DNA from: an uncultured Candidatus Saccharibacteria bacterium | Lineage (GTDB): Bacteria; Patescibacteriota; WWE3; 2-01-FULL-39-13 | NCBI GenBank assembly: GCA_965230915.1 | Contig: OZ246395.1 | Span: 339,535 to 403,534, forward strand | Direction of reading: 5' to 3' | DNA: 64,000 bases | In this document: positions 15,616-49,868 of the stretch, piece by piece | Position numbering within the stretch: the stretch's first letter is position 1 | Layout: each line of letters starts with the position of its first letter | Position numbers and translations under genes: made by a program | The notes under the pieces: model-generated | The model's database searches: none | What the model saw: only the letters and a program-made list of their open reading frames with translations | Told to the model about the DNA's origin: nothing

Positions 15616-15786
15616 TTATTCCTCCCAGTTGCGAGCCAAAATACTTAAATCTGATAAGTCGATTATTCCATCTGCGTTAAGATCCCCATCGCTTCTTCCG
15701 GATATATTTTTTAACCAGTTATCCATAATAACTTGTAAATCTTTCATATCAAACTTATTATCACCTGTTATGTCTTTTGTTTTAAT
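15616..15786 (-). other. Dockerin type-I module (two ~22-aa Ca-binding repeat segments) at the C-terminus of the giant protein
   Basis: DxNxDGxxxxxDL pattern twice, each followed by a hydrophobic helix ending in W; position corresponds to residues ~2255-2310. Confidence 0.65.
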
Positions 15787-21700: not shown

Positions 21701-22548
21701 GCTTTATTGTCCTTCATGAAATTGTAGGCAACTATATTGTCATTACCTTTTATATCGATTGCTTTAGCTCCATTTAGTGATTGTTGAGGAACAATATCGT
21801 TAGCAGCTGCAGTATTTTCTGAAATATCATTATATATAATAGTAAGATGATGAGGAGTTACACTCGCATCTGCTTCATTCACTTGAACATTTATCCCTCT
21901 AGAAAATTGCGTAATGGTGCTGTTTTGAATAGTAATATGGTGAGATGTTGTACCAACTTTTACTCCGTAAAAATATCCGAATGCCATGTCAGGGCAAAGT
22001 GTAAATCCCCCTTCTGCTTCAGTACCATGCGGCAACGTTGACTGGTCTGCCGTTAGTTTTAGATTCTCGATAGTAATGTAAGTTCCAATAACTTCGATGG
22101 CCGTGCTTGTATCAGGGTAATCTAGCCAGAGAATTGGTTGAGCGCCTGTTCCATATGCCCCAATTGTAATTGGACTTTCACTAGTTCCAGTCCAATCTGC
22201 TTTAATATTGTATCCGGTAAAATTGCACCCTCTATTTAAGTATAAATTCTCACCAGCAGATAAATTTACTTGTGTGCCATCTGCACCTCTACCAGTAAAA
22301 CGCTTTAAAGTTTTATATGGAGTTCCTGAAGTTCCATCGCCATTATCGTTTGCAGCATTACAATCAACATAGTAATCCCTTGCAAATGCCGAAGCCGGTT
22401 TTACTAAAGTGAAAAATACAAAAATAAGTGGAAGAATAAAAAAAAGAATCCGAAGATTCTTTGTCGGTGCATCGCCCGCAGTGTAATTCAAGAAACCATT
22501 AAGATTATTCCGAGCATGTGGACGGAAGGGCATTTTTACAAATAACAA
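15616..22548 (-). CDS. Giant (2310 aa) secreted multidomain protein: right-handed beta-helix (pectin-lyase fold) + lectin-like middle region + ~11 tandem Ig/Calx-beta-like repeats + acidic stretch + C-terminal dockerin
   Basis: Signal/TM peptide at the N-terminus; beta-helix-type repeats with NxxI/NN ladders in residues ~60-520; tandem ~105-aa repeats with consensus DNDTAGITVTQSGGTTAVTEGGATDSYTIVL.SQP..DVTV...LTFT.SNW.TPQTVTVTA.ND; two dockerin type-I Ca-binding segments at the C-terminus (DITGDNKFDMKDLQVIMDNW and DLNADGIIDLSDLSILARNW). Confidence 0.85.
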   Translation of the reverse strand: MLFVKMPFRPHARNNLNGFLNYTAGDAPTKNLRILFFILPLIFVFFTLVKPASAFARDYYVDCNAANDNGDGTSGTPYKTLKRFTGRGADGTQVNLSAGENLYLNRGCNFTGYNIKADWTGTSESPITIGAYGTGAQPILWLDYPDTSTAIEVIGTYITIENLKLTADQSTLPHGTEAEGGFTLCPDMAFGYFYGVKVGTTSHHITIQNSTITQFSRGINVQVNEADASVTPHHLTIIYNDISENTAAANDIVPQQSLNGAKAIDIKGNDNIVAYNFMKDNKANCPPESGMIESNAIEVYDAKRNVIHHNVSIGNRVFSEIGGKTDDLDFNSEDIVFAYNVVSTDQDKARFIVIHGKNITFGPTLGVRLYNNTYYSSSTNDSQGISCSGCDTDVLIMRNNIIWARTKAIYVGTGQTPIETNNIFWDGDGSPFPSQFTQNYTIDGTSQKVDPLFVDAANGNFRLQSGSPAIDIGSNDSEMLAYSFMNEDSDGTSIPQNTTMDIGSFENVVSSVPFNGTTYVADTFTRTAASGWGTTETGSQTWTTAQSGSGGSHSINGTQGLSVHGSCNTTNQERLDGLDVLNSDMTFKVKSNKAPITNETQTIYVVSRKQASLTNWEYRHRLQFSGTSLKLLAGKLLGSTSLTTISADTTVSRETFTADTFYKLRVQTYGTSPTTIRMKVWQDGTTEPTSWDLTTTDSESNLQNSGASGIRSFISSTCSAPITLTYDDVSIKSMSTPAISLTAQYQTNCTSALNIGGFVNGTAMCIGSTVNDADNPDTLTLQAEVQPTTTAFTGTANFSSVPVATSGSEANPTISVTGLTVGLNYHWQARVVDSLGNTSAWVPFGGNTETSTDFATAAIPSIQFTSTAASGDEATTSVSLPISISTATSQNVSVNYAVTGGTASGSGTDYTLASGTATVTAGNTTTTIPVTIVNDQIDEDDETIIVTLSSPTNGTLGSNVIYTYTITDNDTAGRSITPSTSINATEGGATATYTIRLNTQPTSDVTVSISGDSQVQVSPTSLTFTSSDWNSNKQITATAIDDLTAEGAHNGIITHTATSSDAKYNGLSFPTKTVKITDNDSAGVSVSESSGSTNVTEGGATDSYTIALSTLPTSDVTITVSPDSQVSVDNPTLTFTTSNWSTPQTVTITGVNDSIVEGTHSGTINHTAASSDGNYNNISIGSITATVTDNDTAGITVTQSSGTTAVTEGGSTDSYTVVLTSQPTNDVTVAIDHDSEVSLDKSTLTFTNSDWSSAQTVTVTAVNDDIDEDSEDSIITHTATSSDSNYNAISVDSVTTAVTDNDTADINISESGGGTDVTEGGTTDTFTIVLASEPTSSVSVDLSSLQVTALNQDPLTPDEENPIVPDILFTASNWDTPQTIVVTAIDDEVQEGSHTGDISFEITSSDTKYSVLNISDIIVDITDNDTAGITVTQSGGTTAVTEGGATDTYTIVLDSQPSADVTVDLSTTSRLQLSASSLTFTTSNWDTPQTVTVIATNDSNYIGNGSVDITHTATSSDDNYDGISISTVSVSITEDETPGITITQSGGSTNVTEGGATDSYTIVLDNQPSADVTVNIAGTGGQVSLSAPSVTFTDLNWDTPQTVTITALNDSIAEGAHQATLTHTSTSSDGAFNGLTIGQVIVNISDNDTAAISISQSSGSTEVAEAGETSDSYTVVLTSQPTSDVTVNITGNDSVDLDKTSLSFTTGNWDTPQTVTVTANNDSVATGNYSNVLTHTSSSSDTNYSGKTSNVTVLVTDDDTSGITVTETGGDTAISESGTTDTFTVVLDTQPSSDVTISMATSEATAYKQGTSSSTLTFTNSNWNVAQTVTVTATDDNVAEGSHSRTVSFAVSSSDLSYNDFDIPGVDFTVTDNDTAGVTLSQSSGSTTVNEDGTTDTYTVVLNTQPTNTVIINPDPDSGVTVNPTSLTFTISNWNTPQTITVSAVDNLIIDGTRSKNIDHEALSTDNFYDGISINSITVSVEDNEVPGVTLSQSDGSTSVNEHGGTDIYTISLNTIPAANVTINIATTSDEITISESELTFTASDWNVPQSITVTGIDDDDFQGNRTATITHSSESDDSDFDDLDISNVVVTITDDEREENVEIQVTETGGDTVVEEGGDTDTIEVELSDQPSEKVKIKLSADDDGKYIDIDDSTLEIEPDDWEKSKKVKIKAIDNNTVDGDHKVKIKYEVDSEDGRYDDIDVNDTEIYVKDNDIKVKNEADIPGDGITPYIPRSGETNTPVTEPSEPVLEMTEIKTKDITGDNKFDMKDLQVIMDNWLKNISGRSDGDLNADGIIDLSDLSILARNWEE
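16400..19950 (-). repeat. In-frame tandem coding repeats (~315-330 nt units, ~11 copies) encoding Ig-like/Calx-beta-like domains
   Basis: Protein-level periodicity of ~105 aa with conserved VTEGG.TD.YT..L...P..DVTV...LTFT..NW..PQTVTV core; copies are divergent at the nucleotide level. Confidence 0.7.
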
Positions 22549-22695: not shown

Positions 22696-23127
22696 ATGGA
22701 TTTAAAGTCTACCTCCCTTTTTATTGTGCTTTCGTTGTTAACAGGAATATTAATAGTTGCAAGCCTAACACTTGGGATATTTCCGCTAGCCTTTATTGTG
22801 GTTGTATACCTTTGTTTCGCCGGTTTTTATATTAATCATAAAAATACTAAAGAAACTTCATTAAGATATTTCGCATACTGCATTTTGCCAATATTGCCTA
22901 TTTATTTAACTCGATTATTCGCTATGACTTCAGAAGATTATGGTTTATATAAGTTAGTAATAGATTTTCTGATTTGCCTACCCTATTCTATTGCCGCATT
23001 TGTAATTGGAATTATCCTTATGGCAAGAAGCGCTTTTATGAAAAATAATTTATTCACAGCTTATAATTTAATTTTTTCTTTTGCGTTGTCCGCGATTATT
23101 TATATTTCATTGGTTCGGAATTGGTAA
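22696..23127 (+). CDS. Hypothetical 4-TM membrane protein
   Basis: 143 aa, hydrophobic; the only + strand gene between the giant-protein gene and the ABC operon. Confidence 0.4.
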   Translation: MDLKSTSLFIVLSLLTGILIVASLTLGIFPLAFIVVVYLCFAGFYINHKNTKETSLRYFAYCILPILPIYLTRLFAMTSEDYGLYKLVIDFLICLPYSIAAFVIGIILMARSAFMKNNLFTAYNLIFSFALSAIIYISLVRNW

Positions 23128-23129
23128 GG

Positions 23130-24350
23130 CTACTCATATCTTAACGCCTCAATCGGCTGCAATTTCGACGCCTTTTGTGCTGGGTACCATCCGAAAATTA
23201 TTCCGATTAAACACGAGACTCCTGCTGATAATAAAATTGCATTTGGCGCGAATACAAATGACAGGTTCATTAACTTGGTGATTCCGTAAGATGCTCCTAC
23301 CCCGATTAAGATTCCGATTATTCCTCCTGTTATAGTTAGCACAACTGCCTCGACTAAAAACTGTGTAACGATTGTTCGGCGTTTTGCTCCGAGGGCTTTT
23401 CTAAGGCCTATTTCCATTGTTCGCTCGGTGACGGTTACTAGCATTATATTCATGATTCCAATTCCTCCTACTATTAAAGAGATTGCGGCGATTCCAGCTA
23501 ACAATGATGTGAAGGTTCCGGTTACTTCGCTGATTGTGTCGAGTAAATCTTCTTGTGAAGAGATTGAAAAATCGGCATCGTCTGGAGTATCTAGATTATG
23601 GCGCTCTAGTAAAAAGAAACCGATTTGGTTTTGTGCAGCTTCCATTACGTTTTCGTCTTTTGCAGTTACATAAATTGTCGAAACGTAATCGACTCCGAAT
23701 AATATATTTTGTGCAGTTGAAAGTGGAATGTAAACGGCTTCGCTTGAACTTCCGAATCCAGAAACTTCTTCGGAGATTCCAACGATGTCATAAGTGCTGC
23801 CTTCGATTTTTATTTGTGCCCCAACGCCTGTGCTGGAATTTCCGAATAATTCGGTTGCAACATCGGGAGTTATAACTGCAACTTTTCTTGTAGATAAAAT
23901 GTCGTCGGTTGTAATTGGGGATCCAATTGTTACTTCTATATTTCGTAAATCAAAATAATTTTCACTGACTCCAATTACAGTTGCGTTCATGTTTGCATCT
24001 TCGTATGCTAGCTGCCCCCTCGAAGAATATTCTGATGCAACTTTATCGATTGTTGTTATTCGATCTTCTGTCGCGATGGCTTCGGCGTCTTGTAAAGTTA
24101 ATGTAGTTCCGCTTCCTGATTGTCCGCCAAGAAAGCCGCCACCGCTACTTGCACCTGGTCTAATAGTTAATAAGTTTGCTCCTAAAGATTGTATTTGAGA
24201 TTTGATGCTTTCCTGGCTTGCTTGTCCAAGAGACATTAATGCAATAACTGATCCGACACCAATAATTATTCCGAGTGCAGAAAGTGCTGTTCGCAGTTTG
24301 TTTGTTGTTAAGACTGATATGGATTCCTCAAAAATTTCTATTAAGTTCAT
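23130..24350 (-). CDS. macB: ABC transporter permease, MacB/FtsX family (large periplasmic domain)
   Basis: N-terminal TM, ~220-aa periplasmic domain, three C-terminal TM helices with the FtsX fold; start overlaps the ATPase stop (4 nt). Confidence 0.85.
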   Translation of the reverse strand: MNLIEIFEESISVLTTNKLRTALSALGIIIGVGSVIALMSLGQASQESIKSQIQSLGANLLTIRPGASSGGGFLGGQSGSGTTLTLQDAEAIATEDRITTIDKVASEYSSRGQLAYEDANMNATVIGVSENYFDLRNIEVTIGSPITTDDILSTRKVAVITPDVATELFGNSSTGVGAQIKIEGSTYDIVGISEEVSGFGSSSEAVYIPLSTAQNILFGVDYVSTIYVTAKDENVMEAAQNQIGFFLLERHNLDTPDDADFSISSQEDLLDTISEVTGTFTSLLAGIAAISLIVGGIGIMNIMLVTVTERTMEIGLRKALGAKRRTIVTQFLVEAVVLTITGGIIGILIGVGASYGITKLMNLSFVFAPNAILLSAGVSCLIGIIFGWYPAQKASKLQPIEALRYE

Positions 24351-25033
24351 TTTTTGCCCTTCCCTTTCGTGTCGCTGACGAGTTTGCCGTCAACAAGTTT
24401 TATAACTCGGTTCGCACGTTGTGCGATTTCATCATTGTGAGTAATTACTATAATAGTATGTCCCTTTTTGTTTAGGTCCTTAAAGATGTCGATTATTTCA
24501 TCGCTTTGATTTGTAGGAAGGTTTCCGGTTGGTTCATCGGCTAATAATATAGATGGTTCCATTGTTAGAGCGCGGGCGATAGCGACTCTTTGTTTTTGAC
24601 CTCCGGAAAGTTCATTAGGTCTATTTGAAAGTTTATTTCCAAGTCCGACAACATTTAAATATTTCTGTGCACGTTCCAATCTTTCAGATTTAGAGAGTCC
24701 ACCATAAGCCATTGGCAACGAAACATTTTTTAATGCGGATGTTCTTGGTAATAAGTTGTATGACTGAAAAATAAATCCAATTTCTTTGTTTCGAATTTCA
24801 GCGAGTTCGTCGTCGCTTAAATTTTCTACGTTTTGATTATTTAAAATATATTGTCCGCTAGATGGAACATCGAGAGCTCCGAGTATATGCATGAGTGTAG
24901 ATTTACCAGAACCAGATGGGCCGATTATCGCGACAAATTCTCCTTTATCAATTTTAAAGTTGATATCAGATAAAGCGTGAGTCGTAACGTCTCCGTTTAC
25001 GTAAGTTTTAGTGATGTGTTTTACTTCGATCAT
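24347..25033 (-). CDS. ABC transporter ATP-binding protein (MacB/LolD-type)
   Basis: Walker A GPSGSGKST, signature LSGGQKQRVAIARAL, Walker B ILLADEPTGNL, H-loop ITHN. Confidence 0.9.
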   Translation of the reverse strand: MIEVKHITKTYVNGDVTTHALSDINFKIDKGEFVAIIGPSGSGKSTLMHILGALDVPSSGQYILNNQNVENLSDDELAEIRNKEIGFIFQSYNLLPRTSALKNVSLPMAYGGLSKSERLERAQKYLNVVGLGNKLSNRPNELSGGQKQRVAIARALTMEPSILLADEPTGNLPTNQSDEIIDIFKDLNKKGHTIIVITHNDEIAQRANRVIKLVDGKLVSDTKGKGKK

Positions 25034-25034
25034 G

Positions 25035-26264
25035 TTATTGTCTAACTCTTACTGCTCCGCCTGTTCCGAATGTGCCGATACGAACATTGTTTTGTGTGTT
25101 TGTATTCGTAAAGCCACTCGTCGAAAACGCCGTTACAATAACTTCATCGCCTTCATTTACCCCACTAATAATTTCTGTGTTATCATCGCCGATTAAGCCA
25201 GTTTGAACTTCGACTTTTCCATTTAAAGTTGTTACATAGGATTTGCCATCTCTATCTTTTGTAACTGCACTTGATGGAACCGAAACCACATCAGCTTTTT
25301 CTTCGACAATTATTTCGGCATCAACGCTCATGTTTGGTAAAACGTTTGGAGAATCGTTTTCGAATTGAATTATTACCGGATAATTCGAAACTCCATTTGA
25401 TGACTCGCCTATTCTGTCGATTCCGACAACAGTTCCTGTGAAAGTTTCATCTTTAATACTGCTCATAGTTAAGTTAACTTTTTGCCCGACTTTTATTTTA
25501 TTTATATCGACTTCGGTTATGTTTACAGTTGCAAGTGGAGTTCCCTCTTGTTTAATTGATGCGACAGTTTGAATTGATTTTTCGGATACAGAGTTTTCAA
25601 CTTTCATACCTGCGACTGCTACGATGTTTGCGACTGTTCCGCTAGCCGGAGCTGTAATTATCGGAGATTGCGATTGGTAATTTATTGATGATGAACTTAA
25701 CGATAATTGTTGTTGCGAAATATTTTTGGCTTGTAAATCGTATGATTGTTTCGCAGAAACATATTCTGCATATGCAGTATCGTATTCTAATTTTTCTGCA
25801 TCGGTTTGATAGCTCGTTCGTTTTTTAACTTCATCAAGTTTCGCTTCTTTTTGCTTTAATGTGTTTTGAAGATTTACGAGTTGATTCTTAGCTTCTTGAA
25901 GTTGAATTTGCGATCCGGTGTAACTTGCGAGTGAACTTGTTTGGCTCGCCTCCCCTTCGTTGTCTAGTGTTACTTCCATTAATTTCTGACCTTCGGTAAC
26001 TGTGTCACCTTCTTTTACAAAAACTTCTTTGATGATTCCATTTACTGAAGTTGTTACCGCTAGATAGTTAGCAGTTGCGATTGTTCCCGATGCTGCGATT
26101 GTGGACTTAACTGTTCCACGTTCAGCAGTTCTGGTAAGAGTTGGAAGTTCTGATGTAGATGAATTACTCATGGAATTTTTATAGTAGAAGTAGCTTACGC
26201 CGCCGACTACTATAAGGATTGCAGGAATGATCCATTTATAGTTAGTTTTTAAATATTTTTTCAT
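25035..26264 (-). CDS. macA: Periplasmic adaptor subunit, HlyD/MacA family
   Basis: N-terminal TM anchor, long coiled-coil (QLQEAKNQLVNLQNTLKQKEAKLDE...), beta-barrel/lipoyl-like segments; translationally coupled to the ABC ATPase. Confidence 0.8.
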   Translation of the reverse strand: MKKYLKTNYKWIIPAILIVVGGVSYFYYKNSMSNSSTSELPTLTRTAERGTVKSTIAASGTIATANYLAVTTSVNGIIKEVFVKEGDTVTEGQKLMEVTLDNEGEASQTSSLASYTGSQIQLQEAKNQLVNLQNTLKQKEAKLDEVKKRTSYQTDAEKLEYDTAYAEYVSAKQSYDLQAKNISQQQLSLSSSSINYQSQSPIITAPASGTVANIVAVAGMKVENSVSEKSIQTVASIKQEGTPLATVNITEVDINKIKVGQKVNLTMSSIKDETFTGTVVGIDRIGESSNGVSNYPVIIQFENDSPNVLPNMSVDAEIIVEEKADVVSVPSSAVTKDRDGKSYVTTLNGKVEVQTGLIGDDNTEIISGVNEGDEVIVTAFSTSGFTNTNTQNNVRIGTFGTGGAVRVRQ

Positions 26265-26309: not shown

Positions 26310-26819
26310 TTAATTTGTGAATTCTTGTATGAGCTTACTCAATAATTCTATTCTACTTTTCTCAGCCTCCAACAAATGTAATGGAAAGTGTTGTTCATAC
26401 TTATGGTGGATTAATTTGTCTTTTTTGGATAAAAATTGTGTATGGAATACTTTTTTGCACATATCGCTACTGTATCCACTGATATTATGCCCGAGGATTG
26501 TTAATAGAAGCCCTTCTAGACAGGGTGATGAGAAATAAACGCGGAAATCATACTGCTTGATTTTAGCTTGGTATTTTTCTGAAATAGGCATATCAGAGTC
26601 AAGCAGAATAAACTTTTCGTTGAAATCAAACGCCTTTACTTGCCTTATCGCGTGGTCTATTACACTATGTGGTCCTCCACCACCTCCGTTTGTTATTACT
26701 ATTCTAGTTTCATTTTTTTTCGCATATTTGCTATTGATATACCGCATTAAAGCTTCTTCCGTCGGACCTTCTCCATAAGCAAGTTTAGTTTTAAGTATTG
26801 GGCGGATGAATCGTCTCAT
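26310..26819 (-). CDS. RloB/DUF4276-like small protein (TOPRIM-like) - partner of the AAA_21 ATPase
   Basis: 169 aa; N-terminal LAYGEGPTEEALMRYI resembles the (V/C)EG.TE motif of RloB/DUF4276; C-terminal SSPCLEGLLLTILGH resembles the NPcFE.WlLlH motif of RloB; starts 3 nt after the ATPase stop. Confidence 0.5.
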   Translation of the reverse strand: MRRFIRPILKTKLAYGEGPTEEALMRYINSKYAKKNETRIVITNGGGGGPHSVIDHAIRQVKAFDFNEKFILLDSDMPISEKYQAKIKQYDFRVYFSSPCLEGLLLTILGHNISGYSSDMCKKVFHTQFLSKKDKLIHHKYEQHFPLHLLEAEKSRIELLSKLIQEFTN

Positions 26820-26822
26820 ATT

Positions 26823-39299: not shown

Positions 39300-42200
39300 C
39301 TATTTTAGGAATCCGAACATTTCTTCCAAGTTCTTCACAATCAAATCAACAACACTTTCGCGTGGTTGTGGTGTTAAAAGTGTGTAATTTTGTGATTCTC
39401 CAGTATTGCCGCCGGTATCGGTTGATTGAATTTTGTAACTGTAAACTTTTCCTGATGAAAATACGGATGAAATAACAATATGTTCGCGGCGCAACGCCGT
39501 ATCTTCTGGAACAGATAATCTTAATTCACCATTTGAGCGAACTCCTTCATCATAAATAATTTTTGATGTAGCTGGTTTATTTGTTTTCCATGAAATAATC
39601 GTTTGAACTTGCTCTACTTTTCCAGGAACCAACGATGTGGTTACGCGAACATCAGAAATTATCGGTGGAGAACTATTTAGTACAGTCGCAAAAGTTACAA
39701 TTGATGATTCCGTTTCATTCCCATTTTCATCAATAGATACAACTTGTGCACTGTAATTTGTAGAAGGAGTTAATTCTTCCGTTGTATAAGAGTGGCCAGT
39801 TATAAAACTGTCATTGGTATCAGTTTGGGCCTGGCCAGTTGTCGTGTCCGTAATAATAATTCGGCTTCTTGTTGGAATGGTCGTGTTCCATGCCAAAGTT
39901 GCTCCACTCTCATTTACGCTTCGAATTTCTATCGAGTCAATATCTGCCGTTTGCGAAGTTGTTGTGAAAATATTATCTGCCGAAGCTGACATTGGGCCAA
40001 AACTTCCCTTTGATCTGCTTTGAATATGGTATGTTGTTTCAGGTTGTAAACCTTCAACTACAACTGTATGTTCAGTCACTGATGCGCTGGAATCTCCAAC
40101 TTCAATTACATATGGATTTGCGGAATCCGAATTGTATTCGGATTCTTTTACATAAGCGACCATCGAATTTGAGGGACGATTTGTAACCCATGATACCGTT
40201 GCAGTTGTTGCTCCGGGTTCAATTGTTAAGTTTGACCCTCCAATTGTCGGACCTGAAAATGTGCTTGATGTAATTTCTAAAAGATAATCGCTTAATGTGT
40301 CATCCGATATATCTTCTAAATTCGGATTGTTTGCTAAAGCTTCAAGTATAGCCTCTAAAAGTGACTGGTCAGCATCTTCGATTATTGATGATATTCCATC
40401 TTCAATTTGTTCTTCTAATGTAGGTTCACCTTCACTGGAATCAACGGTTGTTACATCATTCGTTGTGAAATCCGATACAGCATTTTCTGATTCGTTATTC
40501 GAGCGATCTTTTGATTTAACTTTGTAATAATATTTTGTATTTGCAGTTAATCCCGTCAGACTTATTGAATGATATGTTGTGTAAATATCCGCAATTTCTG
40601 TGGTTTGTCCAAGTGAACTCGAAGTGCCCCACTCTACTGTGCTATTTGCATCTTCGTCAGTTGACCATGTAATAGTTGCACCCTTTTCTCCAGTTAGTGC
40701 AACAACTACATTCGAAATGACCGGGTCTTCATTGTCGATTGTCGTCGATAAGAAATAATATTGAACCGATCCGTTTACGATATTTTTGTCTTCGGTTGTG
40801 TTATCGCTTCCATCTTTGGATCTTACGTAAAAATAATAATCTGTACCAACCTCCAGTCCCGTAATTGTTACCGAATGATTTTGTGTTAAGTCATCTGATC
40901 CGGCAGTTGTTGTCGGACTAGATAGATCGGCATTTTCTGAATAAACGACATAGGATGTTGAATCAATATTTGTTTTCCATGTAATAGTTGCTTGAGTATC
41001 AAAAATTTCCGTTACCGAAACATTAGTAATTTGTGGGCCGGCAGCAGTTGTAAATTGATATGTATTATTTGATGAACTTGCAATATTGTCTGATGCATCT
41101 GTTGACTCGGTTAAAAATGAATAAGTTGTACTCGAATTTAATCCGCTCAAAATTACACTGTGACTTGTTGCCATTGAAGGGTTCCCTTGTGATGAATCGT
41201 AGTCTGAACGGTTGCTTCCTGGATAACTGTTTGTCGCTTCAAAGTATACATTTGAATTTGAAAACTTATTTGTTGTCCAGGTAATTGTGGCTGTTGTTGC
41301 AGTGACGTTGCCTATCGAAACGCCGCTAATTGTAGGAGAAGATAAATCTGTGCCACCATCGCCGTTTGGTATATCTGTAATTACTGAAGAGTATGCTGAT
41401 ATATTATCGTTAGCGTCGATCGATCTTATTTTATACCTATATTCGATTGTCTCATCTAAATTAGTATCAACATAATAATTAGTTAGCCTATTAGTTATAG
41501 TTGTTAAAAGAGAATAAGATCCTCCATTTTCACTTCTATATATTTCATATGATTCGAAGGCGATAGAAGTTGAATCAATTACTCCCCATGCTAAAAATTC
41601 TCTCCAATCTTCTAGAGCTGGGTTCGATACATCTTGATAAAAAACATTTGACGGAATTCCAGGAATTATTGCAGTCTGTATGGTTGTTGTATTACTAAGT
41701 GGATCAATACACTGGGCGTAAACTGTCATCCCTGGTGAATAAGTTACACCGGCCGCGGCAAAAGTATATGAGCTTGAATAAGATCTCCAACTAGCACCAG
41801 ATAAATCTGATGCGGTTCCAATTTTTACTTCTACACCTGATTCATCACTACATGGAACATAAATGAGCGGAGTCGCAAGTGAAGCATCTATTCTAAAATT
41901 ACCTGAAAAGTCCGGGTCGTTTACATCGATTGGTACCAGTTCAGTCTCATCGCTTCCGGTCATAGATGAAGATGCTCCATCGTTTGAAAAAACCTTTAAT
42001 AAAATTCCAGCAAGATGATAAAAGCCATCAATATCATCTTTAGCATTCCATACAAGCGATTTGCCAGTTCCATTTGCAATCGATGATCCGACATTGCCCG
42101 TTACCGATTCTGCTACTCGCCATACATCTGTACCTGATAGATGGGAAGTATTTATCGTATTGTTTACCCCGCGTGTTATGCCTGACAACGTGCTACCGAC

Positions 42201-45200
42201 TTTGCTTGTGTATGTAATCATTTCATCGTCAATTACTATAGTTCCTGAATTATCAAATACAGTTGGGTCAGTGACTACAATACCACCTGTACCTGTATTC
42301 AAGTCAGAACTTAAGGTTGCTCCAAGCTGATATAACAGATAAATAGTTGTGCTAGAAGATTCGTTATCGCTTACATCGTATGTAACATTTAGTTCACCTG
42401 TAGAAGCTTGTTCTCCTGTAGCACTTGAAACAGTCGGTGGAGAGTTGCTGAAAACAAATTGTTTAGTGTAGTTAGAAGTTACTCTCGGGTTTGTTGAGTA
42501 AGCTGTAATTGTATACGTATGATCAATTGTCCATATCGCGCTAGAGACATCATATTGCCATGTTACAGCTCCCGCATAAGGCAGTGTTTGGTTCAAATCT
42601 GTTAGATCAAATTTCTGTTCCGTATCTTGATCAAACTGGCCGTTTGATGAGTTGTACCATTTGTTTGTGTTCGTATCTTTAATAGAAATTTGCAGTGCGT
42701 CGATTTCTGTATCAGATTCCGTGGTTGTTCCAGCAAGTGATGTAACAATAAATGCTTCTTCTGGGTCAGCACTGCTGCCGCTGGTTGTGCATGAATTACC
42801 GGATGTATCGCATATATTTGTAAACGCTGTTACAGGGCCTATTAGGTCTACATAAGTTGTTCCGTCTGCACCCGCATTACCGCTGGAAGTACCGCCACTT
42901 ACAGTAATCGATCCGGAATATCCCGAGCTTTCTGCAGCAAAAACTTCTATGCGTCCGCCACCGCCTCCACCGCCATGTCCCGATAATGTGCTTGAGCTTC
43001 CGGTTCCTCCATTTGCAGTAATATTTCCGGTGCCAGTTAAGGAATAAGTTGTAATATAAATGCTACCGCCTGAACCGCCACCGCCGCCTCTTGATGTTGA
43101 TTGGGTTCCAGCGTTTGACCCGTTTGCAGTAATACTTGTTCCTAAAGATAACGTTCCGGTAACAGTTAATCTTATAGCACCACCTCCGGCACCTCCTGTT
43201 GTTGTTGAATTGTTTCCTCCTCCGCTACCCAATAAAATCGGTGTCTCAGATGAGCCATAAGTTGTACCTGCGTTTGACGATCCGATACCACTACCTCCTG
43301 CTCCTCCATATCCGCCCCCACCGGCTCCAGCCGACCCTGCAGTGCCCGCGCCGCCAGCACCGGTTCCGTTTTGTGCGGCAAATCCTTTCCCATTTGCACT
43401 TAAGCTGCCTGCGCCAGTAATTGTGAAATTTCCATTAGCTGTAATATTTGCTTTGTATAAATCGGTTGAAGCATTCGCCGTATGAGTCATTGTTCCCGAC
43501 AGAGTTACATTGCCGAATGTTGTAGTAGTAGTGCTATTTATGTTGTAAGTACCTGATATTGTTGTATCGCCAAATGTTGAATTGGCATTTTGATTATAAG
43601 TACCAGACACCGTTGTTGCACCGAAAGTCGCTGCAGCGTTTGCATTGTAAGTTCCAGCTATTGTTGTTGTTCCATAGGTTGCACCTACACTATCAAAAAT
43701 AGTTCCGCCTGACCCTAAATTTAAGTCGAAAGATCCGGAAAATAATGATGCGGTTCCACCAGTATATAAAATTATCGCTTCGTTAGATAAATCGGCTGCG
43801 GTATGTGTAACACTGGTTCCTGTGTTTACTAGCCAAGCTCCATAGTTTGAAACTGTAATATTATCTAGGGTTATGACTTCTTCAATTTTTGTTGTTCCGA
43901 CCGGAGCTAAATATGTTGAATGAGATTGATTGTTATTATCAATAATTAGTTCACCATTTGTTTGTGCCGAAGATTTTTTATAGATTGTACCGGCGGCTCC
44001 AAATCTAGTGCTTGGTGTTCCTCCATATGCGGAGATTGTAATTGACCCGCTAAGCGATGAACCATAAAAAAGTGCTATACGACCTCCACTTCCTCCTCCG
44101 CTGCTTGTGGTGTTTCCGCCGTTTCCTCCATTTGCTGTGATTGATGAGGAACCTGCAATACTTGCTGCTGTAATCCATATGCTACCCCCGGCACCCCCGC
44201 CCCCACCTGCGTTTGTTGCAGTAGTTCCATTTGATGCATTTGCTGTAATCGGGCCATTAACCGTTAACGTTCCGGTTACTGTAATTTTTGCTGCTCCGCC
44301 TCCAAGTCCACCAACCGCGCCATTGCCCGAACCACCTCCGCTTGAACCTATGGTTGTCGGTGATTTTATCGATCCATATTGTGCACCGGCAGCAAAAACC
44401 GAGGAATTACCGCCAGTTCCTCCATGGCTAGCACCACTTCCGTAGTTTCCCGAAGAATTTCCGCCATTTCCTGCGCCAGGACCATATCCGTCACCTCCGG
44501 TTCTGTTTGTGTATCCTTTTGTATCTAAATTTACGGAGCCAGTTGAGCTTACGGTCATATCTCCAGTCACAGTTAAATCTAGCTTTATAGTTTCAGAGGA
44601 TCCATTGGGATGATGTACAACACTTCCATCAATTGTTAAATCATGAAAGGTTGTTGGAGTATCTAAAAATAGCGTACTTGTTTGTGGAACAGTAAAATCT
44701 TTTGTTCCATCAAATAACGTGAATGTTCCACCTGTATACATAATTACTGCTTTGCTTGATACATCTAGAGTTGTGTATGATACATCTGTTCCAGATTCAA
44801 CAAGTAATGCTCCATAATTTGTAACTGTTAGTGTGTCGAGTACTATGGCTTCTTCAATCTCTGTATTTCCGATTGGGGATTGGTAAGTTGTGTGTGATTG
44901 ATTATTGTTATCAATTACTATGTCCCCATTAGGTTGACCTGAGGATTTTTTAAAAATGCTTCCTGCTCCGCCATATCTTCCGCTAGTTGCTCCGCCATAA
45001 GCTGTCATTGTCACTGTTCCCGCTAACGAAGAAGTATAAAAAACTGCAATGCGTCCACCACCACCAGCACCGGTGTTTGTGTTATTACCGTTACCCCCGT
45101 TAGCATTCATGTTTCCACTTCCCGTTATAGAGTCAGCAGACACCCAAATACTTCCTCCTGATCCGCCTCCGCCTCCTCCGGAGGTTGCTGATCCACCATT

Positions 45201-46640
45201 TCCGCCGTTTGCAGTTATATTCCCACCAACATTTAATGTCCCCGTAACAACAATTTTTACTGCACCGCCGCCAGATCCACCCGTTCCGCTATTATTTGAA
45301 CCACCACCCCCAGATCCGTAATCAGTTGGTGATTTTATTGATCCATAACTTGGACCTCCAGCATTACTTGTTGCTTTACCGCCGGTCCCCCCATATCCCG
45401 CACCTCCGCCATAACAGCCAGAAGAACCACACCCAACTCCTCGACCAGTACCCGAACCGTTGGCTCCAGTACCGCCAGTTGAACCCTTGCTATTTGCATT
45501 AATATTTCCGCCAGTCTGAACATCTAAACTTGCAGCAGTTAATGAAGATAAATTTCCAGTTATATTTCCTCCACTTTCAATTGTTACGCTTCCATCCATT
45601 GCGATGCTAAATGACTGCGCGTTTGAAGTTGTAAGATTTCCTCCATTTTTGATAACCAGGCTTCCTGTTCCTGAAATCGATGATCCATTAGTCATCGCCT
45701 GTGTAGTTGTAACATTACATGTATCGGCTAAAGTTCCTGAATCGCAAGCAAAGTTGTGGGCGATTGTATCGGTTTCACCAAATTTAAAATTTAACGTATG
45801 GATACCTGGAGTTGCAGCTGTATTTTGAATTCGAGATATTTGTCCATCGCAATTGTAATTTTCTAAAAATACTTTGTTATCTTGATATACATTTGGAATT
45901 TCATTATCACCGCAATAAAAATTGATATAGCTGATATCTGTTCCCCATACTGTTCCTTCAGTCGCTTGAATATCAAGGTTCGAAGTTCCATATGTTCTAA
46001 ATCTAACTTCCCAAGTGTCATTTACGGTAAGATCAGATTGAACATTTAAGACTTCTAGATAAGCTCCCGCATATGCTGAAAAGTGGCTTACATCAAAGGC
46101 AATTTCTTCACCGGATATATTAGGAACAATATCTGAAATTTCCCATTTATTACAAGTGCCCTTTTCTTTGTCAAAATCCCAGGTTTCGCACTTCAAAATT
46201 GCATTTATCGGTTGGTCTTTTTGTTTCTTTAACGTTACGTTTGCGGATTCGAATTTAAAATCGGTGTCGTCGACAAATAAAATATCAGTTTTTATATCTT
46301 TATCGCCTTCGGTTTCAGTAGGTTTATCTACAAAAATATAATTTTCTTTTTCCTCGGGGTTTATATTGGCTTTATTGATTTGAATTGTTGCTTGATTATT
46401 TGTAATTCGATACGAATAAGTATTATCTTCAAATTTATTGATTTGTATTTTTGACTGGATAGTTTTTCCATCTCGACTCTTTACTTCGAAGTTTTTTAAT
46501 TTAACGGGATTAGCTTTGTCTAAAAGAATAATCGTAAAAATGGTACAACAGGTTAGAACAAATAAAGACACCAATAACAATCTATATTGCCTCTTTGCAA
46601 GTAATAATTTAATTGACTCTTTATAGTGTTTAATTTGCAT
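39300..46640 (-). CDS. Giant (2446 aa) membrane-anchored surface protein: N-terminal TM, beta-sandwich domain, three Gly-rich ~330-aa beta-helical units, then ~8-10 fibronectin type-III domains
   Basis: N-terminal LLLVSLFVLTCCTIFTIILL anchor; three units each containing GGA(V/A/I)K(I/L)xVTGTL...ITANG.NG...GGSIW(V/I)...ANGGNG...RIA(V/L)F(Y)...SSL(A/S)G..T(M/I).AYGG; C-terminal half with multiple Fn3 signatures (e.g. ATITWTTN...YSF, YEIYRSENGGSYSLL...YRYKIRS). Confidence 0.85.
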   Translation of the reverse strand: MQIKHYKESIKLLLAKRQYRLLLVSLFVLTCCTIFTIILLDKANPVKLKNFEVKSRDGKTIQSKIQINKFEDNTYSYRITNNQATIQINKANINPEEKENYIFVDKPTETEGDKDIKTDILFVDDTDFKFESANVTLKKQKDQPINAILKCETWDFDKEKGTCNKWEISDIVPNISGEEIAFDVSHFSAYAGAYLEVLNVQSDLTVNDTWEVRFRTYGTSNLDIQATEGTVWGTDISYINFYCGDNEIPNVYQDNKVFLENYNCDGQISRIQNTAATPGIHTLNFKFGETDTIAHNFACDSGTLADTCNVTTTQAMTNGSSISGTGSLVIKNGGNLTTSNAQSFSIAMDGSVTIESGGNITGNLSSLTAASLDVQTGGNINANSKGSTGGTGANGSGTGRGVGCGSSGCYGGGAGYGGTGGKATSNAGGPSYGSIKSPTDYGSGGGGSNNSGTGGSGGGAVKIVVTGTLNVGGNITANGGNGGSATSGGGGGGSGGSIWVSADSITGSGNMNANGGNGNNTNTGAGGGGRIAVFYTSSLAGTVTMTAYGGATSGRYGGAGSIFKKSSGQPNGDIVIDNNNQSHTTYQSPIGNTEIEEAIVLDTLTVTNYGALLVESGTDVSYTTLDVSSKAVIMYTGGTFTLFDGTKDFTVPQTSTLFLDTPTTFHDLTIDGSVVHHPNGSSETIKLDLTVTGDMTVSSTGSVNLDTKGYTNRTGGDGYGPGAGNGGNSSGNYGSGASHGGTGGNSSVFAAGAQYGSIKSPTTIGSSGGGSGNGAVGGLGGGAAKITVTGTLTVNGPITANASNGTTATNAGGGGGAGGSIWITAASIAGSSSITANGGNGGNTTSSGGGSGGRIALFYGSSLSGSITISAYGGTPSTRFGAAGTIYKKSSAQTNGELIIDNNNQSHSTYLAPVGTTKIEEVITLDNITVSNYGAWLVNTGTSVTHTAADLSNEAIILYTGGTASLFSGSFDLNLGSGGTIFDSVGATYGTTTIAGTYNANAAATFGATTVSGTYNQNANSTFGDTTISGTYNINSTTTTTFGNVTLSGTMTHTANASTDLYKANITANGNFTITGAGSLSANGKGFAAQNGTGAGGAGTAGSAGAGGGGYGGAGGSGIGSSNAGTTYGSSETPILLGSGGGNNSTTTGGAGGGAIRLTVTGTLSLGTSITANGSNAGTQSTSRGGGGGSGGSIYITTYSLTGTGNITANGGTGSSSTLSGHGGGGGGGRIEVFAAESSGYSGSITVSGGTSSGNAGADGTTYVDLIGPVTAFTNICDTSGNSCTTSGSSADPEEAFIVTSLAGTTTESDTEIDALQISIKDTNTNKWYNSSNGQFDQDTEQKFDLTDLNQTLPYAGAVTWQYDVSSAIWTIDHTYTITAYSTNPRVTSNYTKQFVFSNSPPTVSSATGEQASTGELNVTYDVSDNESSSTTIYLLYQLGATLSSDLNTGTGGIVVTDPTVFDNSGTIVIDDEMITYTSKVGSTLSGITRGVNNTINTSHLSGTDVWRVAESVTGNVGSSIANGTGKSLVWNAKDDIDGFYHLAGILLKVFSNDGASSSMTGSDETELVPIDVNDPDFSGNFRIDASLATPLIYVPCSDESGVEVKIGTASDLSGASWRSYSSSYTFAAAGVTYSPGMTVYAQCIDPLSNTTTIQTAIIPGIPSNVFYQDVSNPALEDWREFLAWGVIDSTSIAFESYEIYRSENGGSYSLLTTITNRLTNYYVDTNLDETIEYRYKIRSIDANDNISAYSSVITDIPNGDGGTDLSSPTISGVSIGNVTATTATITWTTNKFSNSNVYFEATNSYPGSNRSDYDSSQGNPSMATSHSVILSGLNSSTTYSFLTESTDASDNIASSSNNTYQFTTAAGPQITNVSVTEIFDTQATITWKTNIDSTSYVVYSENADLSSPTTTAGSDDLTQNHSVTITGLEVGTDYYFYVRSKDGSDNTTEDKNIVNGSVQYYFLSTTIDNEDPVISNVVVALTGEKGATITWSTDEDANSTVEWGTSSSLGQTTEIADIYTTYHSISLTGLTANTKYYYKVKSKDRSNNESENAVSDFTTNDVTTVDSSEGEPTLEEQIEDGISSIIEDADQSLLEAILEALANNPNLEDISDDTLSDYLLEITSSTFSGPTIGGSNLTIEPGATTATVSWVTNRPSNSMVAYVKESEYNSDSANPYVIEVGDSSASVTEHTVVVEGLQPETTYHIQSRSKGSFGPMSASADNIFTTTSQTADIDSIEIRSVNESGATLAWNTTIPTRSRIIITDTTTGQAQTDTNDSFITGHSYTTEELTPSTNYSAQVVSIDENGNETESSIVTFATVLNSSPPIISDVRVTTSLVPGKVEQVQTIISWKTNKPATSKIIYDEGVRSNGELRLSVPEDTALRREHIVISSVFSSGKVYSYKIQSTDTGGNTGESQNYTLLTPQPRESVVDLIVKNLEEMFGFLK
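42440..45715 (-). repeat. Three tandem in-frame Gly-rich coding units (~1 kb each) within the giant-protein gene
   Basis: Protein-level triplication (units starting near residues ~400, ~720, ~1060) with conserved GGAxKxxVTGTL / GGSIW / RIALFY / AYGG landmarks; boundaries approximate. Confidence 0.6.
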
Positions 46641-46655
46641 TAGTTATCCCATTTT

Positions 46656-47858
46656 TTACTTATACCTTAAGGCTTCTAGCGCATTCAGCTTACCCGCCTT
46701 TTGGGCCGGCAAGATTCCTGATAAAAACCCTACTCCTCCAGAAAATAAAATAACGAAGAAGATAAACCACAACGGTGTGTAAAAAATACTGATTGGTTTT
46801 CCCCCAAGTGCACTGGCTAAAATATTTAGTCCAACGGTAAAGATAAAACCTCCAATATAGCCAAGAATAATTCCTACAAATCCCCCCAAGAAACCAATGA
46901 CGGTTGATTCGATTAAGAAAATTTTCTTAATATCCCATGAAGATGCACCAATTGCGCGCATAATTCCGATCTCATTTATTCTTTCTAGCAACGATATAGT
47001 CATTGTATTAACAAGACCGATTGCTGCGACAAAAAGTGAGAAAATACCAAAAACTCCTAAAATTGACTGGATTACCCAGAAAATTTGATTAGCTTGCTCA
47101 ACAACATCTGATAATGCCGATACAAGATATCCTTTTGCAATTACTTCTTCCCGAACACTCTCTATTTGATTTTGAGCGGCTGCTTGGATTTTTATAAACT
47201 GGTAATCATTAAATTGAAGATTTGCGGCGTCAGAATAACGCATAAATACTTGGTTTGTGCTCTCTAATGAGTCGATTATGCCAATTATTTCAAATTCTTG
47301 ATCTAGGTTTATAACATCAACTGCATTAGCCCCTGTTTCATCAACTTTTGGCATATATAAACTTAGTTTAAGCTTTTTACCGATAATTTCACCGACCGGA
47401 ATTCCAAATAAATCGGCTACTGTTGGGCTTACAACTAAGGCATTCTTCTTCTCATCTTTGAAATTTTCGCCCGTTGTAACTTCAAGTCCTGCAAGTCTAA
47501 AAAAATTGCTATCAACAACATTAACACTGGTTTCAGAAACCAGGTCGTTCATCGTAATTTGGCCCGGAACAACTGCTTGTGGGCTTACAGCCTTAATATT
47601 TTCAATTTCACTTAAGCTTTTCACAGCATTATTATCAAGTTTGATAGTTTCTGTATCTGGTGGATAAACATCGAGTGTCAAAATTGAATCAGCTGTAGTA
47701 ATTCTTTCCAGGATTGTTTTTTGTAATCCATATCCTAATGAAACCAAGAAAATAATAACTCCAATTGCGACTGCGACACCTAAGACTGTCAAAATAACGC
47801 GTGACTTACGGTTTTTAAAGCTTTGGAATGAAAAGCTCAGAAGGTCATCGATTCGCAT
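46656..47858 (-). CDS. ABC transporter permease, MacB/FtsX family
   Basis: TM1 (VILTVLGVAVAIGVIIFLVSLG), ~230-aa periplasmic domain, three C-terminal TMs. The track ORF (to 47906) starts at TTG and overlaps the ATPase by 62 nt; the internal ATG (MRIDDLL, 47858) gives a 14-nt overlap. Confidence 0.8.
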   Translation of the reverse strand: MRIDDLLSFSFQSFKNRKSRVILTVLGVAVAIGVIIFLVSLGYGLQKTILERITTADSILTLDVYPPDTETIKLDNNAVKSLSEIENIKAVSPQAVVPGQITMNDLVSETSVNVVDSNFFRLAGLEVTTGENFKDEKKNALVVSPTVADLFGIPVGEIIGKKLKLSLYMPKVDETGANAVDVINLDQEFEIIGIIDSLESTNQVFMRYSDAANLQFNDYQFIKIQAAAQNQIESVREEVIAKGYLVSALSDVVEQANQIFWVIQSILGVFGIFSLFVAAIGLVNTMTISLLERINEIGIMRAIGASSWDIKKIFLIESTVIGFLGGFVGIILGYIGGFIFTVGLNILASALGGKPISIFYTPLWFIFFVILFSGGVGFLSGILPAQKAGKLNALEALRYK

Positions 47859-49203
47859 TTCGATCCTCCAATAATTTCGCGATAATAACTTCGGTTTTTT
47901 CTGCAAAATGAGCTGCGGTTCTTGAGTTTAACCCTACTCCGCCATCTTTAAGTGATAAATCTAAAACCTGTCTGAATTGTTCGCCAGTAATTTTTTCTTC
48001 GATTCTATAACCGATCACCTCATGTAATTTTTTCTTTTGGGTTGAGGTTAATTTGACTGTAGATTTTTCAAGTACAAAGTCGGCAACTTCTTTTGATTTA
48101 GCTAAAATAGTTATTGTTTTCTCTCCTGATGCAGATGTGACCGATTCTATAACTTTGACTTCTTTTGTGATTTCCATAACAGACTTTATTAGCTTTGTAG
48201 TCGTCGGATGATATAAACTCAGCCCTTTCAGATTGCCCTTTGATGAATCATCTAGCAATTTATACATTTTGTGCTCATCAATTTCTTTGTTTATAAATTT
48301 GCTGATAATAATTTCGGTGTTATCAATAACTTCAATATCATATGGAACAAGCGATTCATGAACTAATAATTTTGCCATTAATCTATTTTCATCGAGCCCA
48401 GGATACATTTTTGCAAGCTTTTTAAGAATTGTGTCACGATCTTCAGGTTTCTTTTGCAACTCATCTTCAGGTTTTTCTTTAAATGTATCGTAACCTTTAT
48501 GTTCCTTTGATTGATCGGCAACTTTTACAATTTTTCCATCTTGAATATAGAAAACGCGATCTGCTTTTGGTAAATACGATGGATCATGTGTAACTAAAAT
48601 CACAGTTTTCTTATCTTTGTGTTTTAGGTCGGCAATTAAGTCTAAAACGATTGCTGCGTTTTTTGAGTCAAGGTTTCCGACTGGCTCATCAGCTAAAACT
48701 AACGATGGGTCATTGACCAATGATCGTGCGATAGCAACTCTTTGTTGTTGTCCTCCGGATAAGTGTGATGGCGTTCTTGATTGAAATTCTGTAATCCCAA
48801 ATCGTGCTAGTAACTTTGCAGCTACTTCTTCCCGCTTGGCCGGCTCGGCGCCGGCAAAAACCATTGGTAATAGAACGTTATCTTTTGCGGTTAAACTTGG
48901 AATCAAATAAAAGGCTTGAAAAATCATTCCCACCGATGATCGGTGAAATTGAATCATATCTTTTTGTGATAAATGTGTGATGTCGTTTTGTCCGTTTACA
49001 GAAACTTTTCCTTTTGATGGAACTTCTAGTCCTGCAATCAAATAAAGCAGCGTGGACTTGCCCGAGCCCGATGGGCCGAAGAATATTACAAATTCTTCTG
49101 AGAATATTTCTAAGTTGATATCTTGAAGTGCTTTAAACTCTGTGGGTTTCCCTTCATTATAGGTTAATGAAACGTTCTCAATTTTTACGACAGGATTGGG
49201 CAT
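47845..49203 (-). CDS. ABC transporter ATP-binding protein with ~220-aa C-terminal extension of unknown function
   Basis: Walker A GPSGSGKST, LSGGQQQRVAIARSL, Walker B VLADEPVGNLD, H-loop VTHD in the first ~230 aa; residues ~231-452 form an extra Lys/Glu-rich domain with no recognised motif. Confidence 0.85.
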   Translation of the reverse strand: MPNPVVKIENVSLTYNEGKPTEFKALQDINLEIFSEEFVIFFGPSGSGKSTLLYLIAGLEVPSKGKVSVNGQNDITHLSQKDMIQFHRSSVGMIFQAFYLIPSLTAKDNVLLPMVFAGAEPAKREEVAAKLLARFGITEFQSRTPSHLSGGQQQRVAIARSLVNDPSLVLADEPVGNLDSKNAAIVLDLIADLKHKDKKTVILVTHDPSYLPKADRVFYIQDGKIVKVADQSKEHKGYDTFKEKPEDELQKKPEDRDTILKKLAKMYPGLDENRLMAKLLVHESLVPYDIEVIDNTEIIISKFINKEIDEHKMYKLLDDSSKGNLKGLSLYHPTTTKLIKSVMEITKEVKVIESVTSASGEKTITILAKSKEVADFVLEKSTVKLTSTQKKKLHEVIGYRIEEKITGEQFRQVLDLSLKDGGVGLNSRTAAHFAEKTEVIIAKLLEDRNANR

Positions 49204-49305
49204 AAAATTTTGCGGCTAAAAATTCAATTTTTATCAGCAGTAACTGACTTTTTCAATTGTAACACCATGAATATATATGGAAAGGATTTGTATATTTTTA
49301 TGGGA

Positions 49306-49360
49306 TAAAAAATTCGGACCGAGAACTTGGGTTTTGGGTATATACCCAAGTTCTCGGTCA
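49306..49360 (-). terminator. Strong rho-independent terminator (16-bp perfect stem) on the minus strand
   Basis: Minus-strand reading: GACCGAGAACTTGGGT-atatacccaaa-ACCCAAGTTCTCGGTC followed by CGAATTTTTTAT. It is ~105 nt upstream of the ABC ATPase start codon. Confidence 0.65.
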
Positions 49361-49868
49361 TTCAAACAGAAGGAGGAGGATGGAGGACCTACATTGTAAT
49401 GCAGTTAGGCAAGGCGTAATCGACAACAGTTGATCCAACTAGTTAGTAGAGGGGTTTCTCAAAATGTACGTCTACATTCCGAGTAGCTATTCCCAAGAGG
49501 ATGCACTTTCCGGGCCACGTGTTTTCGTGGTAGACCAATGCGCCATTTCCCTAGCAGTTAAAACTATGTCTCATAGTGAGTTTATCCTTTCTTATGTTTG
49601 TAGCCCTGTGGCCGTGTGCAAAATTCCGTAAAACAAGCCGAAACGCAATGTTTCGCTTAAACTCAAATATTATTCTTAATTCCATAAAAGACAATAAACT
49701 TTCGGGATAAATTGGGGTAAGTCCTGCAGAAAAATGACCAATGGCAATCTGGATCTCACGCTAATGAGAAAAACACCAGATTACCATCGGTCGGTGCGAC
49801 AGAACACAAGTACAGGCCGTACGGAGTCGCCATGTAATCATAAAAATATTTCTAGTGAAAATCAAGAT
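49361..49868 (-). ncRNA. Candidate structured ncRNA or long structured 3' UTR (GC-rich, no ORF of 60 aa or more on this strand)
   Basis: ~500-nt region of ~45-48% GC in a ~34% GC genome, between the metallophosphoesterase stop (49869) and the strong terminator at 49360-49306 on the same strand; multiple local hairpins (e.g. GUACGGCCUGUAC, CGAAAC-gcaau-GUUUCG). Family not identified. Confidence 0.25.

Follow-up and report, generated by a model that had tools for sequence, protein, structure and literature searches.

A conserved gene module of a long ABC ATPase, a MacB/FtsX-type permease and a giant surface protein with a C-terminal tag in Patescibacteria

The ultra-small bacteria in the Candidate Phyla Radiation (CPR, or Patescibacteria) make up a large part of the diversity of bacteria and live attached to the cells of their hosts. 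In a 64,000-nt stretch of DNA from an uncultured Candidatus Saccharibacteria bacterium (hereafter the window, in whose positions all coordinates are given), genes for an ATP-binding cassette (ABC) ATPase and a MacB/FtsX-type permease occur twice on the minus strand upstream of a gene for a giant protein, once at 49203-39300 (locus 2) and once at 26264-15009 (locus 1). Is such an ABC pair dedicated to the giant protein beside it, and if so, what does it do to that protein? An initial annotation of the window had taken the repeated pairing to mean dedicated export, processing or activation machinery rather than drug efflux. Our analysis supports a dedicated pairing at locus 2 and argues against one at locus 1.

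The layout of locus 2 is as originally described. It consists of an ABC ATPase of 452 aa (49203..47845; Pfam ABC_tran at residues 26-175), a MacB/FtsX permease of 400 aa (47858..46656; Pfam MacB_PCD and FtsX) and a giant surface protein of 2446 aa (46640..39300; four Pur_ac_phosph_N domains and fn3). Reading of the junction sequence places the true start of the permease at the ATG at 47858, with a GGAGG in front of it and a 14-nt overlap with the ATPase stop, and the permease stop is separated from the giant start by a gap of 15 nt. We found no terminator-like site in either the ATPase-permease or the permease-giant junction, and since the adjacency also held among relatives, as described below, the proposed association at locus 2 withstood both checks.

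We looked for this arrangement in other genomes starting from either end of the module. In an ATPase-led test, seven homologues of the ATPase with 43-60% identity were selected solely by the size of their contig, and in all seven the ATPase and a MacB_PCD/FtsX permease directly adjoin a large fn3/Pur_ac_phosph_N protein, the flanking genes being all different among the seven loci. The giants have 2431 aa in L002, 2171 aa in L004, 1648 aa in L006, at least 728 aa in L007/L008, 1645 aa in L043, 1738 aa on the P0037 contig, and 2293 aa in L009, where a second giant of >2321 aa is present. In a tag-led test, an alignment of the C-terminal module of the giant (the tag, see below) was scanned over one genome per species in GTDB and over JGI metagenomes, yielding 19 distinct strong loci, 17 of which have the long ATPase and the permease immediately adjacent. 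The loci from the genome scan are labelled Saccharibacteria, Shapirobacteria, Falkowbacteria, Parcubacteria and Moranbacteria, with some bins labelled Gammaproteobacteria. Taking both tests together, the adjacency is kept in 24 of 26 independent related loci, and beyond the two exceptions, L012 and L019, the ABC pair is missing only beside weak or short tag matches. The window, L002, L004 and L036 show the order ATPase-permease-giant, with permease-to-giant gaps of 15, 70, 3 and 784 nt, respectively, and so does the P0037 contig, with a gap of about 170 nt that was taken from called-gene coordinates only. The remaining loci have the order giant-ATPase-permease, with giant-to-ATPase gaps ranging from -4 to 78 nt, mostly below 20 nt, and with several 4-nt overlaps. 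Locus 2 is therefore one copy of a conserved, tightly packed three-gene module, whose genes have been inherited together in several CPR lineages in either of two orders, and adjacency that is kept through changes of order is a classical sign of functional coupling. In L009 (1-9924), the two tag-bearing giants, with RCC1 repeats, stand in tandem before a single ATPase-permease pair, an arrangement suggesting that several giants may share an ABC system. We did not recognise the module in the cultivated Saccharibacterium Southlakia epibionticum, for which transposon sequencing (Tn-seq) data are available and which was compared without sequences; its essential fn3 protein SEML1_0890 has only 195 aa and an unrelated context, and its MacB_PCD pair SEML1_0053/0054, in the growth-deficit class, has a 311-aa ATPase and no giant neighbour. 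Full-text literature searches returned no description of the module, the tag or the ATPase extension described below.

The giants of the related loci have their final ~235 residues in common and differ in their N-terminal and central parts, the payloads ranging from a Gly-rich beta-helix (window) to RCC1 (L009), FG-GAP (L043) and DUF2341 (P0037 contig). Judged by these alignments, the conserved element within the giant is its C-terminal tag, not its payload. In the window the tag occupies 39303..40007 on the minus strand, as delimited by alignments and an AlphaFold2 model, and consists of two fn3 sandwiches followed at the extreme C-terminus by an amphipathic helix, ESVVDLIVKNLEEMFGFLK (39359..39303). 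Alignment of the giants gives the tail consensus ...YT(I/L)LTP(R/K)P(R/K)E(S/N)V(I/L)DLI(I/V)KNFExxFGFLK. The AlphaFold2 model of the last 235 aa has a mean predicted local distance difference test (pLDDT) score of 88.8, with the two beta-sandwiches above 90 and the helix (residues 219-234) at 65-79; structures with tandem FN3 domains match the fn3 pair, and the lower pLDDT of the helix would fit a docking element rather than a part of the fold. The helix has a hydrophobic moment of 0.46, attained in 22 of 2000 shuffles, and a mean hydrophobicity of 0.22, and, being amphipathic and charged, it is too polar for a transmembrane (TM) anchor. We also considered a sortase- or exosortase-type sorting signal and rejected it, since the amphipathic, charged tail has no TM helix with a basic cluster after it.

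The tag defines a large family. An exhaustive HMMER search with the 235 residues from the window against 1.84 billion cluster representatives returned 494 representatives at E<=1e-30. Among the best 150 of these 494, 117 carry the tail, in all cases no more than 25 aa from the C-terminus and not once at an internal position; the median length is 1979 aa and the maximum 6321 aa. Neither Pfam nor NCBIfam has a model covering the tail, and a word-indexed protein search with the 235-aa region gave no matches. A 31-aa tail match in L021 (Limisphaerales) was discarded as spurious because it lies in no real open reading frame (ORF).

These results bear on a first alternative, namely that the ABC pair has a housekeeping role in the envelope, such as division or wall remodelling in the manner of FtsEX or YtrEF, or peptide detoxification, and that the giant is merely co-operonic with it. 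This would agree with the giants that stand alone in L012 and L019, with the ABC genes of L016, which are a fused variant without the ATPase extension, and with the fact that YtrF, the closest solved relative of the permease, has no known function. However, the adjacency survives changes of gene order and a full turnover of the flanking genes in 24 of 26 loci from several CPR lineages, the tag is conserved where the payload is not, and the control family, the transporter trio of locus 1, shows no such association. We thus consider a lack of any direct link quite unlikely.

The N-terminal part of the giant indicates how it may reach the cell surface. In the window giant, a basic N-terminus precedes a lone hydrophobic anchor at residues 21-40 (46580..46521), with no other hydrophobic window in the protein and no lipobox evident at the N-terminus. 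Similarly, of 18 giants examined, 13 show a single hydrophobic segment, located at the N-terminus, and no further TM-like window; the other five are ambiguous, those of L006, L010, L011 and L026 because their start is uncertain or because TM-like windows occur further in, and that of L019 because it has no clear hydrophobic segment. A basic N-terminus with a single hydrophobic segment, as most of the examined giants have, points to export by Sec with an N-terminal anchor or signal. The body of the window giant is built of three blocks of Gly-rich, beta-helix-like repeats and a series of fn3/Pur_ac_phosph_N domains, and Pfam revealed no RTX repeats in it. The three Gly-rich blocks, of ~330 aa each at residues ~380-1300, match the N-terminal region of AgmC, a Myxococcus gliding protein, in NCBIfam with a score of 38.9 bits, which is far too weak for membership (cut-off 275); the payload has no other named similarity.

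The architecture of the permease in turn suggests a mechanotransmission protein. Pfam matches on its 416-aa ORF are MacB_PCD at residues 38-256 (7.5e-24) and FtsX at residues 285-408 (1.9e-20), and the protein has four TM helices, of which TM1 and TM2 flank a large extracytoplasmic domain. The closest solved relative of the permease is YtrF of B. subtilis (123.5 bits, 1.1e-34), the best-scoring stretch covering only residues 223-398 and the likeness being strongest over the C-terminal TM region; the further PDB sequence matches are Spr0695, MacB and LolC/F, of which MacB and LolC are distant. No FtsX ectodomain family was reported for this permease, the ectodomain of which matches MacB_PCD. 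With its four-TM FtsX domain and this ectodomain, both recognised by sequence, it is a permease of the MacB/type VII fold. Permeases of this fold are described as mechanotransducers whose substrate need not cross the membrane (PMC11466899, PMC5985334). We found no gene for a membrane-fusion adaptor (HlyD/MacA/YknX) in locus 2 or in the related loci examined.

A second alternative, true secretion, would make the ABC pair a one-membrane, type-I-like exporter that reads the C-terminal helix of the giant as a secretion signal. A conserved, uncleaved-looking C-terminal helix on very large repeat proteins whose gene lies beside an ABC system is indeed reminiscent of SiiE and LapA (PMC6272769), and CPR cells are single-membraned. 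On the other hand, the permease has the four-TM MacB/FtsX fold, which is described as acting with no passage of a substrate through the membrane (PMC11466899, PMC5985334), rather than an HlyB-type one, the giants bear N-terminal Sec-type hydrophobic segments that are absent from substrates of type I secretion systems (T1SS), and neither an adaptor nor RTX repeats were detected. In our view, secretion by the ABC pair itself is very unlikely.

The ATPase can be divided into a nucleotide-binding domain (NBD) at residues 1-235 (49203..48499), a disordered linker at residues 236-257 and an all-helical extension at residues ~258-452 (48432..47848). Its AlphaFold2 model has a mean pLDDT of 85.6, exceeding 90 over residues 1-230. 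Foldseek matches of the full model are dominated by the NBD, which superimposes on the ABC domain of MacB and on Spr0694, MJ0796, BceA, FtsE, YbbA and LolD with root-mean-square deviations of 1.5-2.2 A and TM-scores of 0.86-0.94 normalised to target, and also on YtrE and HrtA. According to this model, the NBD belongs to the type VII (MacB/LolD/FtsE) structural class. The best NCBIfam match of the ATPase is LolD, with 207.4 bits against a cut-off of 307.75; the MacB model NF007826 gives 201 bits against a cut-off of 966 that is set for the fused protein, and FtsE gives 184.7 bits against 264.85. The permease likewise scores 87 bits with NF007826 against the same fused-protein cut-off, 75.4 bits with lolCE against 362.45 and 51.9 bits with FtsX_Gpos against 225. 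Since both proteins fall below the cut-offs for MacB, FtsE/FtsX and LolD/LolCE, the locus 2 pair lies outside these curated families.

The ~220 residues after the ABC_tran domain have no Pfam match, and the extension has no PDB sequence match either. The extension is a duplication of a ~80-aa unit (hhalign probability 98.6%, E 5.7e-16), and both units bear the conserved motif LDxPxxxGG(V/x)GL(N/Y)x(R/Q)TA, which can also be written LDxPxxxGGVGLNxRTA and which, by eye, resembles a helix-hairpin-helix. Full-length homologues of this long ATPase are abundant in CPR metagenomes, with 420-450 aa and 97-100% coverage. In L016 (3666-5651), the ATPase and the permease are fused in one 661-aa protein without the helical extension, so that the extension is either dispensable or replaced by the covalent linkage.

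The likeness to Lol proteins raises a third alternative, that of a Lol-like extractor, in which the ABC pair would draw a hydrophobic element of the giant, be it its signal anchor at the N-terminus or its C-terminal helix, from the membrane, releasing the giant or passing it to the wall or S-layer, and the tag would be a wall- or lattice-attachment module instead of a docking site. LolCDE and YbbAP-TesA, both of type VII, do take hydrophobic molecules out of the membrane (PMC12646458, PMC11466899), the N-terminal anchor of the giants looks uncleaved, the ATPase domain matches LolD best (207 bits), the permease matches LolCE/LolF, and the evidence from synteny is equally applicable. Yet every Lol family score is far under its cut-off, no lipobox is evident, and it is the tag, not the N-terminal segments, that is conserved in sequence and that tracks the ABC pair. 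We regard extraction, the main rival of the reading favoured below, as possible, if unlikely.

We favour, at a probability of roughly 55%, the reading that the module is a type VII ABC mechanotransducer acting on a Sec-exported, N-terminally anchored giant. The giant would be exported by Sec and remain tethered via its N-terminal hydrophobic segment, and its exposed C-terminal tag is predicted to dock on the extracytoplasmic domain of the permease. By analogy with FtsEX acting on EnvC/PcsB and with YbbAP and TesA, and from fold membership only, the ABC pair would work as a mechanotransducer that does not translocate the giant; ATP hydrolysis in the cytoplasm would be turned into a conformational change, a release or a hand-off of the giant adhesin, and the ATPase extension might serve as a regulatory or dimerisation handle. 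Among the functions first proposed for such pairs, export is thus weakened by the Sec-type anchors and the MacB fold, and processing, activation or extraction appears likelier than translocation.

Several points weigh against the mechanotransducer reading. The giants of L012 (3680-10723, 2347 aa) and L019 (993-6413, 1806 aa) carry the tag without an ABC pair in the available flanks, the tail of the latter being diverged (...NFQEIFGWVGGVK). Docking of the tag on the permease is no more than a prediction. A conserved, uncleaved-looking helix at the extreme C-terminus also resembles a type I secretion signal, a protein of 2400 aa with an anchored N-terminus and a membrane-docked C-terminus would have to loop back on itself, and extraction of the N-terminal anchor in the manner of LolCDE would explain the synteny equally well. 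Moreover, that locus 2 forms a single operon is judged from spacing only. A bolder version of the mechanotransducer reading sees in the module a previously unrecognised, ABC-powered surface machine of CPR bacteria, in which giants with beta-helix, RCC1, FG-GAP or lectin-like heads would be exchangeable 'limbs' that a type VII ABC motor grips by their invariant tag. Mechanical extension, retraction or switching of these limbs would serve to capture hosts or to move on surfaces, and the duplicated extension would couple the motor to a cellular signal; we put this forward as an unlikely speculation.

Locus 1 presents a different picture, even though its layout is also as first described. It comprises an HlyD/YknX-type adaptor (26264..25035; Pfam, NCBIfam), a 228-aa ATPase (25033..24347), a MacB permease (24350..23130; Pfam, NCBIfam and PDB matches) and, after ~590 nt that include a 143-aa membrane ORF on the plus strand (22696..23127), a giant of 2305/2310 aa (15616..22548, minus strand) with beta-helix and Calx-beta-like repeats and a marginal C-terminal dockerin, followed by a 201-aa protein (15614..15009) proposed as its cohesin partner. 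The dockerin (15616-15900) emerges only from a scan restricted to the last 94 aa of the giant, in which Dockerin_1 scores 24.4 bits (cut-off 22.9), and the proposed cohesin (15009-15614) has no family match in Pfam or NCBIfam. The permease scores 198-225 bits against MacB structures, and with NF007826 the ATPase scores 257 bits and the permease 241 bits. The locus 1 ATPase is without the ~220 extra C-terminal residues of its locus 2 counterpart; the two share 41% identity over the ATPase domain, and the permeases share 27%. The two giants have no significant similarity to each other, and a scan of the window with a hidden Markov model (HMM) of the tag matched the locus 2 giant alone, the locus 1 giant being without the tag. 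We therefore rejected the idea that the two loci are duplicates, the giants being unrelated and the permeases only 27% identical; by sequence comparison, the ABC systems of the two loci represent distinct paralogues.

The locus 1 permease has very many orthologues, with 59-75% identity, some being labelled candidate division WWE3. As a control, we followed the adaptor-ATPase-permease trio in L022, L023/L024 and L025 (permease identity 75%, 65% and 63%), where the trio is kept and, in one of the three relatives, preceded by a two-component system. None of the three has a giant neighbour beside the trio, so that the adjacency at locus 1 is coincidental, and the trio is best read from its sequences as a YknXYZ/MacAB-like efflux or detoxification pump. 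The initial annotation was hence literally right in that the pairing is seen twice in the window, though it is not a recurrent pattern, holding in 24 of 26 relatives of locus 2 and in 0 of 3 of locus 1; by the same counts, a transporter dedicated to a giant rather than to drug efflux is upheld for locus 2 and not for locus 1. The argument from repeated pairing itself does not hold, since the giants are unrelated, the ABC systems are different paralogues and an opposite-strand gene intervenes at locus 1. Directly upstream of the trio (26310-28034, minus strand) lie genes for an AAA_21 ATPase (403 aa) and a RloB-like protein (169 aa), which together resemble an abortive-infection or defence gene pair.

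The gap upstream of the locus 2 ATPase is 665 nt long and has at its end a strong hairpin with a T-run (49300..49362, minus strand), an intrinsic-terminator-like structure with a 16-bp stem recognised in the sequence and recovered in the fold of 49290-49870. It looks like the close of the upstream transcription unit right before the module. Downstream of it, ~50 nt upstream of the ATPase start, a consensus scan alone gave the promoter-like site TTTCCA-16-TG-TACAAT (49256..49283, minus strand). The succession of hairpin, T-run and promoter-like site makes the ATPase plausibly the first gene of a transcription unit. The site at 49283-49256 is a weak candidate for the operon promoter, as such matches occur across the region at chance level (40 against 38.9 expected), and so do terminator-like matches (8 against 9.7 expected). 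The segment 49290-49870 (minus strand) has a minimum free energy of -168.4 kcal/mol (z = -5.7), with none of 100 shuffles equally good, and may represent either a structured RNA that lacks annotation or the 3' untranslated region, long and structured, of the Metallophos gene; it matched no Rfam family, and Rfam and tRNA scans of the whole window gave no matches.

The module offers a sequence signature, the tag, which defines a family of giant proteins comprising ~500 or more clusters, and a dedicated ATP-driven partner for this family. Its ATPase extension and its tag are two domains that had not been described before. It also gives a concrete, testable hypothesis for the control of giant surface proteins from the cytoplasm. 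If the mechanotransducer reading is true, the principle of a type VII mechanotransducer plus an extracytoplasmic partner, as in FtsEX-EnvC, LolCDE-LolA and YbbAP-TesA, would be extended to adhesin-like giants.

Among type VII ABC systems, FtsEX activates extracellular enzymes, LolCDE extracts lipoproteins, YbbAP partners the periplasmic hydrolase TesA, and MacAB pushes small molecules via an adaptor (PMC11466899, PMC7668044, PMC12646458, PMC5985334). The module resembles FtsEX (with EnvC, PcsB, RipC or CwlO) in combining a type VII ATPase with a four-TM FtsX-fold permease that has an extracytoplasmic domain, and FtsE matches the ATPase domain with a Foldseek TM-score of ~0.91 normalised to target. 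In FtsEX, the partner is encoded nearby or bound to the ectodomain via a helical element, and ATP hydrolysis regulates it rather than transporting it (PMC7668044, PMC10694151). The module differs in that its ectodomain is of the MacB_PCD type, not FtsX_ECD, its partner is a polymorphic adhesin-like protein of 1.2-6 thousand aa without a hydrolase or activator domain, its candidate docking element is a fn3-fn3-helix at the C-terminus instead of a coiled coil, and its ATPase has a 200-aa duplicated helical extension. YbbAP-TesA and YtrEF are likewise MacB-fold pairs without a membrane-fusion adaptor, YbbAP forming a complex with an extracytoplasmic protein (PMC12646458), and YbbA and YtrE are among the fold matches of the ATPase domain; however, these systems have no giant neighbour, C-terminal tag or ATPase extension, and the partner of YbbAP is a small lipid hydrolase. 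MacAB-TolC, Spr0693-0695 and YknXYZ share the folds of the ATPase domain and the permease, and locus 1, with its adaptor, ATPase and permease, looks like a member of this group, in contrast to locus 2 and all its relatives, which have no adaptor gene. Finally, T1SS such as those of SiiE and of LapA (LapBCE) also pair an ABC system with a giant, repeat-rich surface protein that is encoded next to it and has a conserved element at its extreme C-terminus, but their exporter is of the HlyB type instead of the MacB/FtsX fold, they require an adaptor and an outer-membrane factor, and their substrates are without the N-terminal signal that the module giants have. Type VII ABC systems with an extracytoplasmic partner are a known kind, to which this module would add a giant partner, a tag and an ATPase extension.

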